From Candidatus Poribacteria bacterium (GTDB lineage: Bacteria; Poribacteria; WGA-4E; WGA-3G): DNA of 64,000 bases. The DNA is taken from NCBI GenBank assembly GCA_965197475.1, contig CBDANF010000003.1:2368001-2432000 (forward strand), read 5' to 3'. Below are positions 3,377 through 24,138 of this stretch, one piece after another; the first letter of the stretch is position 1; every line of letters begins with the position of its first letter. Position numbers and translations under genes: made by a program. The notes under the pieces are model-generated. The model had not been told where the DNA came from. It did no database searches and worked only from the letters and a program-made list of their open reading frames with translations.

Positions 3377-3460
3377 CGCCTCTTGACAACGGCAACTTTT
3401 ATAGCAAAGGAGAACTTTATGAAACTTATACGCGATTTAATACAGCAAAGGAGAAACTTC

Positions 3461-5347
3461 ATGAAATATAAACGCGCTTTTATCTTGTTACTGTTCGTCT
3501 TACTGTCCGCGCCGGTGGTGCCAGTCTACTCAGCCACGCCAGAAGTATACCCAATGTCAATCACGAAATACGGTTACACGTTGGAAGTGTCAAAGTTAGC
3601 CGCAAACTTCTTTCCCGATATCAATACAGATATAGGGTTTACGATCACCGTCACCTTTCCCTCAAACGCTTCGGGGGCTGACCTCTTTGTCGGACTACTA
3701 CCTGACAGCGTTTCGAACCATTTGGGGCAATGCATCAGCCACGATGACAATGGTGAACATGCTAATCCCGATCTTATGCTGCGATTGATGAATAACGATG
3801 GATGGAGACGGGTGAGCGGCAGCAGGACGACCCTTGTCAGTCATCTCATCGCCACGGGTACTTTACCTGTCCCTTCATCTGTCAATGTCTACTGTAAGGA
3901 TAGTGCCGCCTCTGGCAAAATCGTTATTAGCTTAGACCCGACTGGTAAACCCGCCATCAGTCTGACCCGGCGCATCCCATTTGATGACGCAAACGAAAAC
4001 GGTATCGCTGACGGCTGGGCAGGCGATGCAATCAAAAACTATACCGGTGGCGAAGACGAAGAAACAGGGCCCGCTGGCACCAACTTTTTAGGGTACGTTC
4101 TGGATGCCAACGGCAATATTGAGTACAATAACGTCGGCATACCAAAGACGAAGAGATATAACGTTGCCGCGAATGGACATGTTGGCGATGGACTTACCGC
4201 TTTTGAGGAGTACCGCGGCGCAAAACTCGCCCGCGGGCTACCCGTGAAAAGGTTCGATCCGACTGTAAAGGATATCTTCGTGACACATAGGTACCATAAC
4301 AATAATGACTTAAAGCAAAAAGGAACCGGCACGGGTGCTGATTTTAAACTCACTCCCTACGAGATCATAACCGCGAGGACGGATAACGTGGTCAATTTAT
4401 ATACGGACGGACGCGCAGCCTCTCGTGTTTTCGCGATTAAAATTGAAGAAAATACGACTCAAGCCCCCGCAAACTTGCAGGTTCCCCCTCTCGGAGAAGC
4501 AACAGGAAATGCAAACATACCGAAATGTACGGATGTGGCTAATGGATTCTATGAGTTCCCGCCAGAGGTAACCATTTACACTGCCCGTCTCACAGCTGAC
4601 GAGATGGGCAAGGTGCTCTCACACGAAATTGGGCACTGCGTCAACTTAGAGCATTGCGATCAGGCAGAACCGGGGTGCCTGATGTTTCATGCAGAAAAGA
4701 AATTGCGTATAAGTTTTGGCAAGTATCACATCCCCGAGTATGATTTGATAGAACCCTTTGCAGCAGTGCCGGTAGCTAACCCCATTATTGGTGGGGACAA
4801 CCCGGGCGATGGTAACGGGGACAGTGGTGATGATAGTAACATCCTCAGCACGAATACGGGTTATAGTTCTTCACATGGGTGTGATTATAACTCCGAACAT
4901 GACTATTGCTCAGACACTGGTACGTGTGGAAGTCAAACGTCGTTTGATGGCATCGGTCTCTGTGGACATCGTTGGTGCCTCTGTCCTGCCGATGATAGCA
5001 GTAGCATTCTCAGCACGAACACTGGTGTCAGTGATACCTATGGTTGTCACTATATATCAGAACGTGACTACTGCTCAGACACTGGCACGTGTGGAAGTCA
5101 AACGTCGTCTGATGGCATCGGTCTCTGCGGACACCGATACTGCCTCTGTCCCGCCACCGATGATAGCAGCACCGATGATAGCAGTAGCATTCTCAGCACG
5201 AACACTGGTGTCAGTGATACCTATGGTTGTCACTATATATCAGAACGTGACTACTGCTCAGACACTGGCACGTGTGGAAGTCAAACGTCGTCTGATGGCA
5301 TCGGTCTCTGCGGACACCGATACTGCCTCTGTCCCGCCGCGGACTAA
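3461..5347 (+). CDS. Secreted metzincin-like zinc metalloprotease with C-terminal Cys-rich repeats
   Basis: RBS aaggag + ATG3461. Signal peptide MKYKRAFILLLFVLLSAPVVPVYSA. HEIGHCVNLEH followed by a CLM Met-turn. DxNxNG/GDGL..EE Ca-type loops and three 6-Cys repeats. Confidence 0.8.
   Translation: MKYKRAFILLLFVLLSAPVVPVYSATPEVYPMSITKYGYTLEVSKLAANFFPDINTDIGFTITVTFPSNASGADLFVGLLPDSVSNHLGQCISHDDNGEHANPDLMLRLMNNDGWRRVSGSRTTLVSHLIATGTLPVPSSVNVYCKDSAASGKIVISLDPTGKPAISLTRRIPFDDANENGIADGWAGDAIKNYTGGEDEETGPAGTNFLGYVLDANGNIEYNNVGIPKTKRYNVAANGHVGDGLTAFEEYRGAKLARGLPVKRFDPTVKDIFVTHRYHNNNDLKQKGTGTGADFKLTPYEIITARTDNVVNLYTDGRAASRVFAIKIEENTTQAPANLQVPPLGEATGNANIPKCTDVANGFYEFPPEVTIYTARLTADEMGKVLSHEIGHCVNLEHCDQAEPGCLMFHAEKKLRISFGKYHIPEYDLIEPFAAVPVANPIIGGDNPGDGNGDSGDDSNILSTNTGYSSSHGCDYNSEHDYCSDTGTCGSQTSFDGIGLCGHRWCLCPADDSSSILSTNTGVSDTYGCHYISERDYCSDTGTCGSQTSSDGIGLCGHRYCLCPATDDSSTDDSSSILSTNTGVSDTYGCHYISERDYCSDTGTCGSQTSSDGIGLCGHRYCLCPAAD
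4829..5339 (+). repeat. Three intragenic ~54-aa Cys-rich repeats
   Basis: 4989-5156 and 5172-5339 are identical (offset 183). 4829-4990 is a diverged first copy. Confidence 0.95.
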
Positions 5348-6510: not shown

Positions 6511-6885
6511 ATGCCAACTATTAATCAATTAATTAAAAAACCGCGCAAAAAATATCGTAAAAAAACGAAATCCCCGATTCTCCAGCAGTGCCCACAACGT
6601 AGAGGTATCTGCTTACAGGTGAAAACGGTAACGCCAAACAAGCCTAACTCAGCCTTACGGAAAGTGGCACGTGTCCGGTTTACCTCTTCTACTGATGAAG
6701 CAACCTGTTATATTCCAGGGATTGACCACAATTTGCAGGAGCACTCAATGGTGTTAGTCCGCGGCGGGCGAGTCAAGGATTTGTCAAACGTGCGATACCA
6801 TATTGTCCGTGGCAAATTAGATACAGATGGTGTTGAAAACCGTCGCCAGGGTCGCTCTAAATATGGGGCGCGGAAGCCCGGTTAA
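6511..6885 (+). CDS. rpsL: 30S ribosomal protein S12
   Basis: MPTINQL..PQRRG..PNSALRK..HNLQEHS..GGRVKDL..RSKYG. Confidence 0.99.
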
Positions 6886-7001
6886 TTGACCAACAATATA
6901 AATTTCATCTTTGTTCAAGAAAACTTTGTTCAAGAAGATACGATAGATTGTAATACCGGTAAGAGAGCGGGTTGTGCTCTTGATTTCTGGAGGAATGATA
7001 C

Positions 7002-7472
7002 ATGCCGAGGCGTGGAAACGTCGCAAAACGGGACGTAAGTCCCGATGCCGTTCACAACAGCAAATTAGTTTCAAAATTTATTAACCATCTAATGTGGGAT
7101 GGTAAAAAAGGCACCGCACAACGGATTGTCTACACCAGTTTTCGGATTATTGAGGAGCGAGCGAAAGAGGATGGATTTACAGTGTTTCGACAAGCCATCA
7201 ATAATGTGAAACCTGTGCTGGAAATCCGCCCACGGCGTGTCGGAAGCCAAACATATCAAGTACCGGTTGATGTAAAAGCTGAACGACGAACCACTTTAGC
7301 GGTTAACTGGATTATCCAATCTGCGCGTAACCGAGGCGAAAAAGGTATGGCCGCGCGGTTGGCAGGCGAGCTTTTGGATGCATCGCAGAATGAAGGTAAC
7401 GCAATTGGTAAGAAACAAGACCAACACCGGATGGCGGAAGCAAATAGAGCCTTTGCACATTATCGATGGTAA
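7002..7472 (+). CDS. rpsG: 30S ribosomal protein S7
   Basis: [24 protein letters not shown]. Confidence 0.99.
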
Positions 7473-7558
7473 TCAAATTAAATAATAAACATAAAAACAA
7501 CACACAGAAAATTGTGAAACGGTGTCAAAAAGATCGACTAAACAAGGAGTCTTAAACT

Positions 7559-9670
7559 GTGTCGGACAACAAACAGAGGGTGCCACATCGGTCAGTCCTA
7601 TCGCATACGCGAAACATCGGTATTATGGCCCATATTGACGCGGGCAAAACGACTGTAACCGAACGAGTCCTATTTTATACGGGACGGGTCTACCGTATTG
7701 GTGAGGTACACGACGGTACGAGCACAATGGACTGGATGGTGCAGGAGCAGGAACGCGGTATTACCATTACTGCTGCGGCAACTACCTGTAACTGGAAAGA
7801 TCACCAAATTAATATCATTGATACGCCAGGACATATTGACTTTACCGTTGAAGTTGAACGTTCCTTGAGAGTTCTGGATGGTGCAGTTGCTGTGTTCTGT
7901 GCAGTCGGCGGCGTTGAACCCCAATCGGAAACGGTTTGGCGGCAAGCGGATAAATATGAAATCCCTCGTATTGCGTATGTCAATAAAATGGATAGAACCG
8001 GTGCTGACTTTTTCCGAACCGTTGAAATGATGGGTGAACGTTTAGGTGCTACTGCCTTACCTATCCAACTCCCAATCGGGTCTGCCGAACAATTCAAAGG
8101 AATTGTTGACCTCATTTCAATGAAAGGACAGTTGTGGGACGAAGGAAGTCTCGGTGCTGTTATTCATGAAACCGACATCCCCGCAGAAATGGAGGAAATG
8201 GTGCATGAATACCGGGATCGGTTGTTTGCTGCAGTCGCAGAATGGGATGATGAACTCTTAGTCAAATATCTTGATGGTGTTGAGATTACGCCTGAGGAAA
8301 TTAAAGCGGGGTTGCGTCAAGCGGTACTCAGTAGTAAAGTCGTGCCAGTGCTTTGCGGAAGCGCGCTAAAAAATAAGGGCGTTCAACCACTTTTAGATGG
8401 CATTGTCTCCTATCTCCCAGCTCCAACAGATGTCAAACCGGTTGTTGGGTTTAACCCGAAAACTGAGGAAGAAGAGACGCGTCCAGCAGATAAGGACGCA
8501 CCGTTCAGTGCACTTGCATTTAAAATTGCCACCGATCCACACGTTGGAAAACTGACATACCTACGCGTCTACTCCGGTGTCCTAAACAAAGGCACCACGG
8601 TTTACAACAGCAAACGCGAAAAATTTGAACGCATCGGCAGGTTGATGCAGATGCACGCTAATAAACGCGAAGAACATCAATCTGTTAGTGCTGGTGACAT
8701 CGTTGCTGTGATCGGATTAAAAGATTTAGGCACTGGTGACACTATCTGTGATCCTAAATCACCAATTGCACTGGAAACAATGGTTTTTCCGTTACCTGTC
8801 ATGTCAGTAGCGGTTGAACCACGCTCGCAATCAGACATTGATAAGTTAAATCTTGCCCTCTCAAAATTGGCTGAGGAAGACCCGACTTTCAAAGTTCATC
8901 AAGACCCAGATACAGGACAAACGCTCCTATCCGGCATGGGTGAACTGCATCTGGAAATCATCGTGGATAGGTTAGTGAGAGAGTTTAACGTTTCCGCTAA
9001 CGTAGGTTCACCTGAAGTGGCATATCGGGAAACACTTCTGAAACCAGTAAAAGTCCAAGGTAGATTTGTACGGCAATCGGGCGGCAGAGGGCAGTTCGGA
9101 CATGTTGTTATTGAGGTTACACCTCTTGAAAAAGGTACTGGCTTTGAATTTACTGATGAAACGAAGGGTGGGGTTATCCCCCAAGAATACATCCCTGCGG
9201 TTCGAAAAGGCATCGAAAATGCAATGAATGTCGGAACTTTAGCCGGTTACCCTGTCGTTGATGTTGGTGTTCGACTTGTAGACGGTTCTTTCCATCAGGT
9301 AGATTCCTCAGAGATGGCGTTTTCGATTGCTGGTTCTATAGCGTTCAAGGAAGCTGCAAAAAAGGCAGGATCAGTATTACTTGAGCCGATCATGGAGGTT
9401 GAAGTTTTAGTCCCTGATGAGTACCTTGGGAAAGTGATTGGCGATCTTAACTCTCGACGCGCTCATATTAGAGACACAGCGGTACATGCAAAATCGCGGA
9501 TTCAAGTCGTTCAGGTAGATGTTCCGTTGTCTGAAATGTTTGGTTACGTCAAATCACTTCGTTCGCTAACACAGGGACGTGCCAACTATTCTATGGAGTT
9601 TGGACATTATAGAGAGGTTCCAGCGAGCGTTGCTGAGGATTTGATTTCAAGCACAGTATCAACATCATAA
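7559..9670 (+). CDS. fusA: Elongation factor G
   Basis: [29 protein letters not shown] start after aaggag. Confidence 0.99.
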
Positions 9671-9920: not shown

Positions 9921-11120
9921 ATGGCAAAGCAAGCTTTTGAAAGGACAAAGCCACACGTTAATATTGGCACTATTGGCCACGTTGACCATGGTAAAACAAC
10001 GCTCACAGCAGCGATTACTATGGTATTATCAAAACTCGCTGACAAAGACTATGTCATGACCTATGAGGACATTGACAAAGCACCCGAGGAAAAGGAACGT
10101 GGCATTACGATTAACACGGCTCATGTTGAATACGAGACAGAAAACCGTCACTATGCTCACGTTGACTGCCCTGGGCACGCAGACTACATCAAAAATATGA
10201 TTACGGGTGCTGCGCAGATGGATGGTGCCATTCTAGTTGTTTCCGCAGCAGATGGCCCTATGCCGCAGACACGTGAACACGTACTTCTGGCAAGGCAGGT
10301 GAACGTCCCATCCTTGGTTGTCTTTCTTAATAAGGCAGACATGGTAGATGACGAAGAACTGCTGGAACTCGTTGATCTGGAAGTCCGTGAGTTATTGACA
10401 GAATATGAGTTCCCTGGGGACGATACACCCATCATCACGGGTTCCGCTCTTGAAGCCATGGAATCTGCTGGTGATCCAACAAGTGAAAAATGTAAACCGA
10501 TCCTTGATCTCATGGCATCTGTTGATGAGTTTATTCCCCAACCGGTTCGAGATACGGAAAAACCTTTCTTGATGCCGATTGAGGATATCTTTACAATTAG
10601 TGGACGTGGAACTGTTGTCACTGGTCGTGTAGAGAGAGGCATCGTTGAAGTCGGAAATACGGTAGAAATCGTTGGGCTTCGCGAAACCATGAATACGGTT
10701 GTCACCGGTGTTGAAATGTTCAAAAAATTCCTTGACGAAGGTCGAGCAGGCGACAACATCGGAGCACTGCTGCGAGGTATTGATCGAGAAGATGTCGAAC
10801 GCGGACAAGTTTTAGCGGTTCCGGGAACGGTTAAACCCCATACCAAGTTCGAAGCAGAAGTCTATATCTTGACAAAAGAAGAAGGTGGACGTTGGAATCC
10901 ATTCTTTAATGGATATCGTCCGCAATTCTATTTCCGTACAACAGACGTTACCGGTGAAATGAATCTGGCTGAAGGTGTTGAAATGATTATGCCTGGTGAC
11001 AACGCAAAGATTACCGTTGAACTGTCGAAACCGATTGCGATGGAAGAACAACTCCGATTCGCTATCCGTGAAGGTGGACACACTATCGGAGCCGGGGTTG
11101 TCTCTAATATCCTGGACTAA
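9921..11120 (+). CDS. tuf: Elongation factor Tu
   Basis: [29 protein letters not shown]. Confidence 0.99.
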
Positions 11121-20050: not shown

Positions 20051-20581
20051 TTGCGAAAAGAAAAAATCAATCCTGAAGATTTTGAATTTGAAGAACGACC
20101 TATTGCTATAAATCGAGTCATGCGTGTTGGAAAAGGGAGAAGGACCCCGAGTTTTAATACCCTCTCCGTTGTCGGCAATCGAAACGGCATCGTTGGAATC
20201 GGTTTTGGGAGCGCAAGCGAAATTTCTGGCGCACTCCGCAAAAGTTTTGCTGACGCACGGAAAAATTTAATTCGCGTTCCTCTATCTGATGGTACACTTC
20301 CTCATGAAATCATCTGTGAATTCAAAGCTGCAAAAGTCCTGCTAAAACCTGCAAGACCCGGTACTGGTATCATTGCTGGTCATGCAACGCGGGCTATTTT
20401 GGAACACGCAGGTGTACGGGACGCACTCACAAAATGCCTGTCTTCAAGAAATGTCAAGAATATCGCTGAGGCTACGATGATCGGTTTGAGAAATCTCAAA
20501 GATGTTAATGATGTCGCACGAATTCGAGGCAAAACAGTTGAAGAACTTTTACATAAACGTACTAACAATTCTAAAAACTGA
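20051..20581 (+). CDS. rpsE: 30S ribosomal protein S5 (divergent)
   Basis: INRV..VVG..PHE..PA.PGTGIIAG..AG. Confidence 0.97.
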   Translation: MRKEKINPEDFEFEERPIAINRVMRVGKGRRTPSFNTLSVVGNRNGIVGIGFGSASEISGALRKSFADARKNLIRVPLSDGTLPHEIICEFKAAKVLLKPARPGTGIIAGHATRAILEHAGVRDALTKCLSSRNVKNIAEATMIGLRNLKDVNDVARIRGKTVEELLHKRTNNSKN

Positions 20582-23505: not shown

Positions 23506-24138
23506 ATGAGTAGGTATTTAGATTCTGTTTGTAAGTTATGCCGTCGAGAGGGGGAAAAACTTTTTCTGAAAGGCCGCAGATGCCTTGGACCAAAATGCTC
23601 CTTTGAACGAAGAAGTTATCCACCCGGCGACCACGGACAAAAACCACCCACACGCGCTCGGGGCGAATATCGACGACAATTACGCACTAAACAAAAAGCA
23701 AAGCGAATTTACGGTATCTTTGAGAAACAGTTTCGCAACTATTATTTCAAAGCAGCACGCCAAACCGGTATCACCGGCGAGAATTTAATTGCGCTCCTTG
23801 AACGCCGCTTAGACAATGTCGTTTATCGACTCGGGTTTGCAACATCACGTAAACAAGCCAGACAATTGGTGAAACACAATCACTTCACTGTCAATGGGAA
23901 GCGAGTCAATATACCTTCCTATCTGGTTGAAATTGGAGATGTTATCACCCCACGCGAAAAAAGCCGTGAAAGCATCACGATTCAAGAAGCGTTAGAATTT
24001 TCAAAGCAACGGGGCGCACCCGAATGGCTCGAAATTGATGCTGGTAAGCCTGAAGGACGAGTGCAAGGAACACCAATTGTGGAGCATATTGCAGCAGAGT
24101 TAGACACACAACTAATTATTGAATTATACTCAAGGTAA
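23506..24138 (+). CDS. rpsD: 30S ribosomal protein S4
   Basis: [25 protein letters not shown]. Confidence 0.99.

Follow-up and report, generated by a model that had tools for sequence, protein, structure and literature searches.

Textbooks treat lysine 42, proline 90 and glycine 91 of ribosomal protein S12 (E. coli mature numbering) as fixed features of decoding, along with two elements of 16S rRNA, the 530 pseudoknot and the central pseudoknot; together they form the classic target of streptomycin. The drug is described as contacting C526/G527 and S12 (PMC10525438, PMC7345809), and the S12 loops that hold K43-K44-P45 and K88 are described as meeting h18 at nucleotides 525-526 and h27 at nucleotides 912-913 (PMC9456066). 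In E. coli and Salmonella, the replacement K42N gives streptomycin-resistant, error-restrictive and slow-growing mutants (PMC3082907, PMC5954217); PMC5954217 reports 22% slower growth, and PMC3082907, for E. coli, a doubling time of 106 versus 46 min and a fall of UGA read-through from 148 to 5 units. These laboratory mutants are costly and are rescued by changes in S4, S5, L19 or h14/h44. Changes at P90 and G91 in Thermus thermophilus and E. coli make the ribosome resistant to the drug or dependent on it (Carr 2005; Timms and Bridges 1993, as cited in PMC3884664). At P90 of Thermus, small side chains (G, A, C) lead to resistance and bulky ones (L/R/E/M/W) to dependence, and in model organisms a change at K42 within the same protein can suppress P90 defects (PMC3884664).

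Natural S12 target-site variants are already known as a kind. In a survey of intrinsic rpsL variants (Ngo, Letten and Engelstadter, bioRxiv 10.64898/2026.06.09.731231), which counts residues from the initial methionine, 7.57% of 15,721 species carry one of eight resistance variants: 830 species have 88R, 359 have 43R, and seven have any other, including 43N and 43T, so that 43N or 43T occurs in at most 7 of the 15,721. Carriers include all 70 Planctomycetia screened (88R), Sphingomonadales, and Wolbachia (43R); the trait shows a strong phylogenetic signal, and at P90/G91 the panel lists 91L and 92D. In PMC6183457, 16S streptomycin mutants of M. tuberculosis are described in the 530 loop and the 915 region, and R42 and R87 are given as the two commonest clinical resistance residues.

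The case reported here comes from Candidatus Poribacteria, an uncultured sponge symbiont. An earlier note, made from the letters of the window (the whole stretch of 64,000 nucleotides that was analyzed), had proposed that its S12 carries streptomycin-resistance or -dependence substitutions in both conserved loops. The locus shares with the K42N mutants of E. coli and Salmonella the identical replacement at the identical position and, like the carriers in the survey, its wild-type S12 has clade-wide a residue of resistance mutants (43N in the eight-mutation panel), again with a strong phylogenetic signal. Its other S12 changes lie in the same loop as those of the P90/G91 mutants, beside h44 and C1490; the small residues A, C and G at P90 are resistance alleles in Thermus, and Poribacteria use S or A. 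As in the 16S mutants, there are changes in the 530 and central pseudoknot/915 regions.

Other features differ. Unlike the carriers in the survey, nearly all of which have the low-cost 43R or 88R, Poribacteria fix the costly-type 43N in 72 of 149 species, and they add 91S and 92N, both off the panel, and 16S changes outside the survey's screen. Unlike the laboratory K42N mutants, Asn42 is stable here over 39 species of one genus, with S4 and S5 of full length, on a background altered at 90, at 91 and in three rRNA tertiary pairs. Neither P90S nor G91N figures among the alleles that the consulted passages of PMC3884664 list, and Asn91 is the phylum-wide wild type, not a selected mutant. Moreover, the 16S mutants are single substitutions, whereas in Poribacteria both partners of 20-915, 18-917 and 505-526 are swapped. 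This instance and its composition were not found described: the words "Poribacteria" and "sponge" are absent from the text of the preprint, publications naming Poribacteria and streptomycin are, among the matches listed, incidental by title and start of abstract, and a literature search for "A915G" with streptomycin and 16S returned none.

The rpsL gene and its authenticity

The window holds a standard, intact str operon (rpsL, S7, an EF-G-like ORF and EF-Tu), with the following features:

6511..6885, forward strand: rpsL (uS12, 124 aa), ATG at 6511, stop at 6883-6885, TIGR00981 match, sole copy in the genome
6637..6639, forward strand: Asn at the E. coli K42 position (residue 43 counting Met), codon AAC, motif TPNKPNSA
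6778..6780, forward strand: Asp, kept, at the E. coli D88 position (RimO methylthiolation site), codon GAT
6784..6786, forward strand: Ser at the E. coli P90 position, codon TCA
6787..6789, forward strand: Asn at the E. coli G91 position, codon AAC
7002..7472, forward strand: rpsG (S7), following rpsL in the str operon (TIGR01029, 207.4 bits)
7559..9670, forward strand: EF-G-like ORF at the fusA position of the str operon, named from reading of the translation only
9921..11120, forward strand: tuf (EF-Tu; TIGR00485, 722.3 bits)

The S12 translation begins with MPTINQL at ATG 6511 and scores 201.4 bits against TIGR00981 (rpsL_bact; cut-off 112.95), with residues 1-123 covered; family score and str-operon context (rpsL, rpsG, fusA, tuf) both place it in uS12. 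In ungapped phmmer alignments with the five best solved S12 chains, N faces K and S-N faces P-G, changes that read K42N, P90S and G91N in E. coli mature numbering. Translation and alignments bear out to the letter the motifs that the earlier note had reported, namely TPNKPNSA with AAC at 6637, and KDLSNVR. In the latter, D-L-S-N is encoded by GAT-TTG-TCA-AAC (6778-6789), Asp88 standing two residues ahead of S90. Asn at 42 is one of the replacements on the preprint's resistance panel (43N, 43R, 43T); Ser90 has a small side chain, as A, C and G have, yet does not itself figure among the reported P90 alleles, and Asn91 is not the D of panel variant 92D. K42N is one base change away from either Lys codon, AAA or AAG, and all the position-42 changes seen are single-base steps, G91 to Asn being two.

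An artefact (misread or misassembled sequence, a pseudogene, contaminating DNA or a hidden second canonical copy) has to be weighed, given that the genome (5.7 Mb in 3 contigs) is a metagenome assembly, 92.7% complete and with 6.97% estimated contamination. Against it stands the single rpsL in an intact str operon: in this 92.7% complete genome no further rpsL appeared beside the 6511-6885 gene at E <= 10, and both rpsL and the single 16S gene lie on contig C3. Furthermore, contigs without a single letter differing from the window were recovered from four runs (X1, X3, X4, X5) of two studies. One from X3, a sponge metatranscriptome library, is exact over 6576-6735, codon 6637-6639 included; others, from X1, X3, X4 and X5, are exact over 6718-7500 or parts thereof. 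These matches concern the stretches that the run contigs span, bins without cover occurring in X1, X3 and X5; two of the four runs are sponge metatranscriptome libraries, and the best DNA run may be the source sample. Since, in addition, 39 of 39 species of the genus have N/S/N with synonymous codon differences, an artefact can be regarded as extremely improbable, and neither of the two outcomes that the earlier note had named as fatal to its claim, a sequencing error and a second canonical rpsL, was encountered.

At 3383-5347 (forward strand), the window also contains a 654-aa ORF with no Pfam match and an HExxH-like stretch, HEIGHCVNLEH. It ends in Cys-rich units of about 61 aa, which derive from a 183-bp tandem repeat of 2.6 copies (4895-5339), the last 1.9 copies being 100% identical.

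S12 residues within and outside Poribacteria

S12 was read in 149 species genomes of Poribacteria, of 150 with a match, sampled in two draws (G151 was left out). All of them have Asn at position 91. Position 90 is occupied by Ser (104 genomes), Pro (36) or Ala (9), and position 42 by Asn (72), Lys (62), Arg (9), Thr (4) or Ser (2). In the genus of the window (g1), N42/S90/N91 is found in 39 of 39 species genomes. To the question whether the changes are fixed in the lineage, which the earlier note had raised, the answer is that they are clade-wide, i.e., fixed across a taxon and not confined to single isolates. Residues other than Lys at 42 are restricted to family f1 (N, S, R) and a few genomes of family f3 (T). 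Among the 99 genomes of f1 there are 72 N, 16 K, 9 R and 2 S; the 16 with Lys belong to genus g9, where K42 recurs inside the N42 family. Arg42 always comes together with K85, R87 and A90, and S12 of family f5 has N85 or R85, R87, PN and G93.

The selective regime can be read from the genus. There, mean identity of rpsL is 85.8% for DNA and 99.2% for protein, and third codon positions hold 36,022 of the 38,702 pairwise differences. Among the 39 genomes, N42 is encoded by AAC (36) or AAT (3), S90 by TCA (10), TCG (14), TCT (11) or TCC (4), and N91 by AAC (23) or AAT (16). This synonymous turnover at all three codons, with the amino acid unchanged, implies that the residues are kept by selection: to judge from codon usage, N42, S90 and N91 are long-maintained functional residues under purifying selection.

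Outside the phylum, the comparison relied on the best 150 of 5,202 hits among 50%-identity cluster representatives (1.84 billion proteins), a sample chosen by score and not at random. All 150 of these best-scoring S12 proteins have K at 42, with no departure; in the second loop, readable in 147 of them, PG occurs in 145, PS in 1 and PA in 1, hence none departs from P90. The earlier note had called these positions nearly invariant in bacteria, a description that holds for P90, for G91 and for the rarity of Asn at 42, but not for the natural K43R and K88R, which are common, a panel variant being present in 7.57% of the 15,721 species (bioRxiv 10.64898/2026.06.09.731231).

Several observations on individual lineages deserve mention. 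Genomes G044, G046, G109 and G137 of family f5 (S12 loci L199-L202, L206) have Gly at R93. In genus g9, whose members differ in having K, N or R at 42, the R42/K85/R87/A90 combination stands at two separate places on the 16S tree; it is carried, e.g., by G080 and G098 (L191, L212) and by G085, G106, G127 and G142 (L209, L214, L213, L210), and also appears in the more distant Poribacteria loci L075 and L119, so that it is either convergent or exchanged between species. Two of the runs (X3, X4) also contain a relative with AAA (Lys) at window positions 6637-6639 and about 30 differences in 314 bases, i.e., roughly 10% divergent, from which it follows that K42-type and N42-type Poribacteria share samples. 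Finally, N91-type metagenomic S12 proteins (P0036, P0092, P0066, P0069, P0082, P0068) show further variants around residue 42 (APNKPNSA, PPNKPNSA and PPIKPNSA, the last with Ile at 42). Outside Poribacteria labels, the N91 type is represented by one "Zixiibacteriota" protein (on a 1.8-kb contig), two labelled "bacterium" and others unlabelled, for which a cluster look-up yielded almost no names; either the type extends past what is named Poribacteria, or these labels could be mistaken.

16S rRNA and other ribosomal partners

The 16S gene of the same genome was numbered by alignment to an E. coli rrs:

L120:1501-3052, reverse strand: own 16S gene, single copy, contig C3

It carries U13A and a series of paired changes. 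In the central pseudoknot, C18A goes with G917U, turning C18-G917 into A-U, and U20C with A915G, turning U20-A915 into C-G; in the 530 pseudoknot, G505A goes with C526U, turning G505-C526 into A-U. In Thermus, central-pseudoknot substitutions are known as streptomycin-resistance mutations, among them those at 13, 20 and 915. In the Rfam bacterial consensus, C18, U20, G505, C526, A915 and G917 are written in upper case. There are two further differences from E. coli: A19C with U916G yields C19-G916, the common bacterial state per the same consensus, and the change of A1410-U1490 to G-C yields the T. thermophilus state (PMC3884664). The Thermus 30S structure shows a base triple of U13, U20 and A915, with U20 and A915 as pairing partners (PMC3278836). 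Pairing is therefore preserved in the exchange to C20-G915, and likewise in those to A18-U917 and A505-U526. The own 16S is unchanged at 523, 530, 885, 912-914, 1408, 1409 and 1491-1493. It has none of the four high-confidence resistance mutations of the preprint's rrs panel (523C, 885A, 912G, 913G), nor any change at the site of 2-deoxystreptamine aminoglycosides (A1408, C1409 and G1491 are kept).

These states extend over the phylum. Of 62 Poribacteria 16S sequences, 61 were read at 915: 60 have G915, and G042, which is the deepest genome, keeps U20-A915. U917 is present in 61 of 61, and of the 48 with a readable 5' end, 47 show A13/A18/C19/C20. At 505-526, 60 genomes divide into A-U (42), G-U (10), G-C (5) and G-A (3). 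In one control phylum, approached via a Clostridia-labelled locus, the 515-536 22-mer occurs in 61 of 301 genomes, and C526 in 150 of 150 among the matches listed (there being 56 further matches). A maximum-likelihood 16S tree of 61 rows was built without G111 and the partial G143. It requires residue 42 to have changed at least 6 times, residue 90 at least 5 times and the 505-526 pair at least 8 times, counts to be taken as rough minima because branches are short and kin are not independent; residue 42 was thus replaced at least 6 times among 59 genomes. The S12 and 16S positions that vary in Poribacteria are structural neighbors by the contacts described in the sources cited above.

Some lineages depart in ways of their own. 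G505 opposite A526, non-standard at a pseudoknot pair that is otherwise G-C, is found in G051, G054 and G106 (16S loci L158, L159, L224); the S12 of two of these genomes has Ser42 and that of the third Arg42. In family f5 (16S loci L164-L167 of the four genomes named above), A1409-U1491 replaces the conserved C1409-G1491 of helix 44, a separate decoding-site departure situated in the 2-deoxystreptamine aminoglycoside pocket. G111, a genus g1 assembly in 230 contigs, has its 16S locus L135 on a 3-kb contig that groups with genus g6 of family f3, which by its placement is probably a binning error.

Two ribosomal proteins in which compensation might be sought are also encoded in the window:

20051..20581, forward strand: rpsE (S5), full length, 176 aa (TIGR01021, profile positions 3-156 of 156)
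23506..24138, forward strand: rpsD (S4), full length, 210 aa, C-terminus intact (NF003717, profile positions 1-202 of 202)

No ram-type truncation of S4 or S5 was seen in the own genome, judged by profile coverage from end to end. The earlier note had expected compensation in S4, S5, EF-Tu or 16S; in 16S, where it had pointed to h18, h27 and h44, coordinated pocket changes are indeed present at 13, 18-917, 20-915 and 505-526. The visible candidates for compensation lie in S12 itself and in 16S rRNA.

Regarding the modifying enzymes, RsmG is present in the own genome (157.4 bits; cut-off 99.5), which rules out its loss as a route to resistance. RimO (TIGR01125) was not found above cut-off in the own genome, the two best hits being MiaB and MtaB. 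Within the phylum it exceeds the cut-off in 5 of 41 genomes, all from f5, f8 and f9, which are deep families; none of the 36 genomes of families f1-f3 reaches it. This indicates that the enzyme that methylthiolates D88 was lost in the order that holds this genome, though Asp88 remains; a RimO-modified S12, which takes both the enzyme and the Asp, is accordingly not expected in this genome.

Predicted drug response, build-up and possible causes

The window encodes the genuine and only S12 of this symbiont, and we consider it likely that it belongs to a lineage-wide, selection-maintained alternative S12/16S interface, one that would form the streptomycin pocket and help to shape the decoding site. 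Genome comparison establishes, at the level of sequence, that the changes at contacting positions of S12 and 16S are stepwise, nested and maintained by selection, and the reading in terms of three S12 residues should be widened to a phylum-level rebuild of the pocket.

The order of the build-up, based on group codes and on the short-branched 16S tree, would be the following. S12 G91N, 16S A13 and A18-U917 in the central pseudoknot would have been acquired at the level of the phylum, and C20-G915 in place of U20-A915 at that of the class, while RimO, the D88-modifying enzyme, would have been lost at that of the order. The 505-526 pair of the 530 pseudoknot would then shift among G-C, G-U, A-U and G-A, and S12 position 90 among P, S and A. 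In one family, later than the phylum-wide G91N, K42 would have become Asn and afterwards Ser, Lys or Arg. The nucleotides lining the pocket (the backbone of 526, the 915 region and helix 1) would thereby sit in altered pairs which, together with Asn42 in place of the streptomycin-interacting Lys, should weaken drug binding. K42N, costly in E. coli, is probably tolerated here since N91, S90 and the rRNA pairs re-tuned the site first.

That these ribosomes bind streptomycin poorly is accordingly a prediction by analogy, in which we place rather good confidence: Asn replaces Lys42, whose side chain interacts with the drug, and K42N is resistant in E. coli and Salmonella. The K42N effect is known on canonical ribosomes only, and the background here differs at many neighbors, which makes resistance an extrapolation. 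The earlier note's account of E. coli K42N as resistant and hyperaccurate agrees with PMC3082907 and PMC5954217. Its alternative reading of the P90 change as one of dependence is unlikely in view of the Thermus alleles (PMC3884664), Ser90 being small and P90S thus resembling by analogy a resistance allele more than a dependence one. Whether the cost of K42N is absent here owing to the background re-tuned beforehand seems to us an even call. The suppression of P90 defects by K42 changes and the resistance conferred by small P90 side chains, both from other organisms, would fit a cost-free K42N. K42 itself persists, with N91 and the rRNA background being the same, in 62 of 149 genomes, which shows that its loss is not forced by this background.

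As to the cause, the explanation to which we give most weight, while holding it somewhat short of an even chance, dispenses with the drug: a slightly harmful change, in S12 or in one of the conserved tertiary pairs of the rRNA, would have been fixed early in small populations of a host-bound symbiont and then compensated at contacting sites, insensitivity being a by-product. The rRNA changes speak for it, as they are pair-preserving and the G-U intermediate still exists in some lineages (10 of the 60 genomes), and so do the nesting by taxonomic rank, the repeated change of both the contacting residue 42 and the 505-526 pair (6 and 8 times) and, in the survey, the presence of 43R in obligate endosymbionts such as Wolbachia without obvious drug exposure (bioRxiv 10.64898/2026.06.09.731231). 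Drift would not, however, account for amino acids long under strong purifying selection, and it does not by itself predict that three of the four residues to which position 42 has moved (N, R, T and S) belong to the resistance panel (43N, 43R, 43T), or that the R42 lineages also carry R87, which is panel variant 88R. Alternatively, target-site resistance would have been selected by long exposure in the sponge holobiont to streptomycin or to a compound binding the same pocket, with the turnover of residue 42 and nucleotide 526 reflecting continuing selection. Such a history would be favored by the clustering of changes at described drug contacts (K42, K87 in the R42/R87 lineages, and 526; PMC10525438, PMC9456066, PMC6183457), by the single rRNA operon, through which rRNA variants are fully expressed, and by the replacement of residue 42 at least 6 times among 59 genomes, compared with a very low rate elsewhere (bioRxiv 10.64898/2026.06.09.731231). 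We nevertheless rate it as rather unlikely, as K42 returns within the N42 family (the 16 g9 genomes), G91N and P90S are absent from the preprint's panel (which lists 91L and 92D), and the literature joining Poribacteria and streptomycin is incidental, in the sense given above.

Selection on decoding itself, toward a restrictive, hyperaccurate and slower mode suited to a slow-growing symbiont, as with K42N in E. coli, appears improbable. The drop in read-through and the doubled doubling time of the E. coli mutant (PMC3082907) and the role of the S12 loops in organizing the decoding site (PMC3884664) would accord with it by analogy, but restrictive effects depend on the background, and close relatives of the same habitat have K, N, R or S at 42, the K42 relative occurring in the very same runs, which argues against one optimal setting. 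A more far-reaching proposal, which we advance tentatively and regard as possible but doubtful, is that Poribacteria reached a second workable shoulder of the decoding site: the pairs 20-915, 18-917 and 505-526 and the P90-G91 loop would have changed jointly and RimO been lost, whereupon K42 would have become freely replaceable, giving way to N, R, S or T and returning to K in six or more events. The invariance of K42, P90 and G91 elsewhere would then be a contingent epistatic lock, and the residues shared with the resistance panel would point to a pocket-binding natural product of sponges.

Positions 13, 18, 20 and 526 of the own 16S fall within the sites of the widely used primers 27F and 515F (8-27 and 515-536), and owing to their differences from E. 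coli, amplicon surveys may under-count Poribacteria. The predicted target-based aminoglycoside insensitivity of a major sponge symbiont would bear on enrichment and cultivation media and on the chemical ecology of sponges. A large and abundant phylum of symbionts has replaced several of the fixed points of decoding together, keeps the replacements under selection, and constitutes a natural experiment on the epistasis of the decoding center, namely on what makes K42N cheap. If the proposal of a second workable shoulder were true, the invariance of K42, P90 and G91 elsewhere would not be an absolute requirement.
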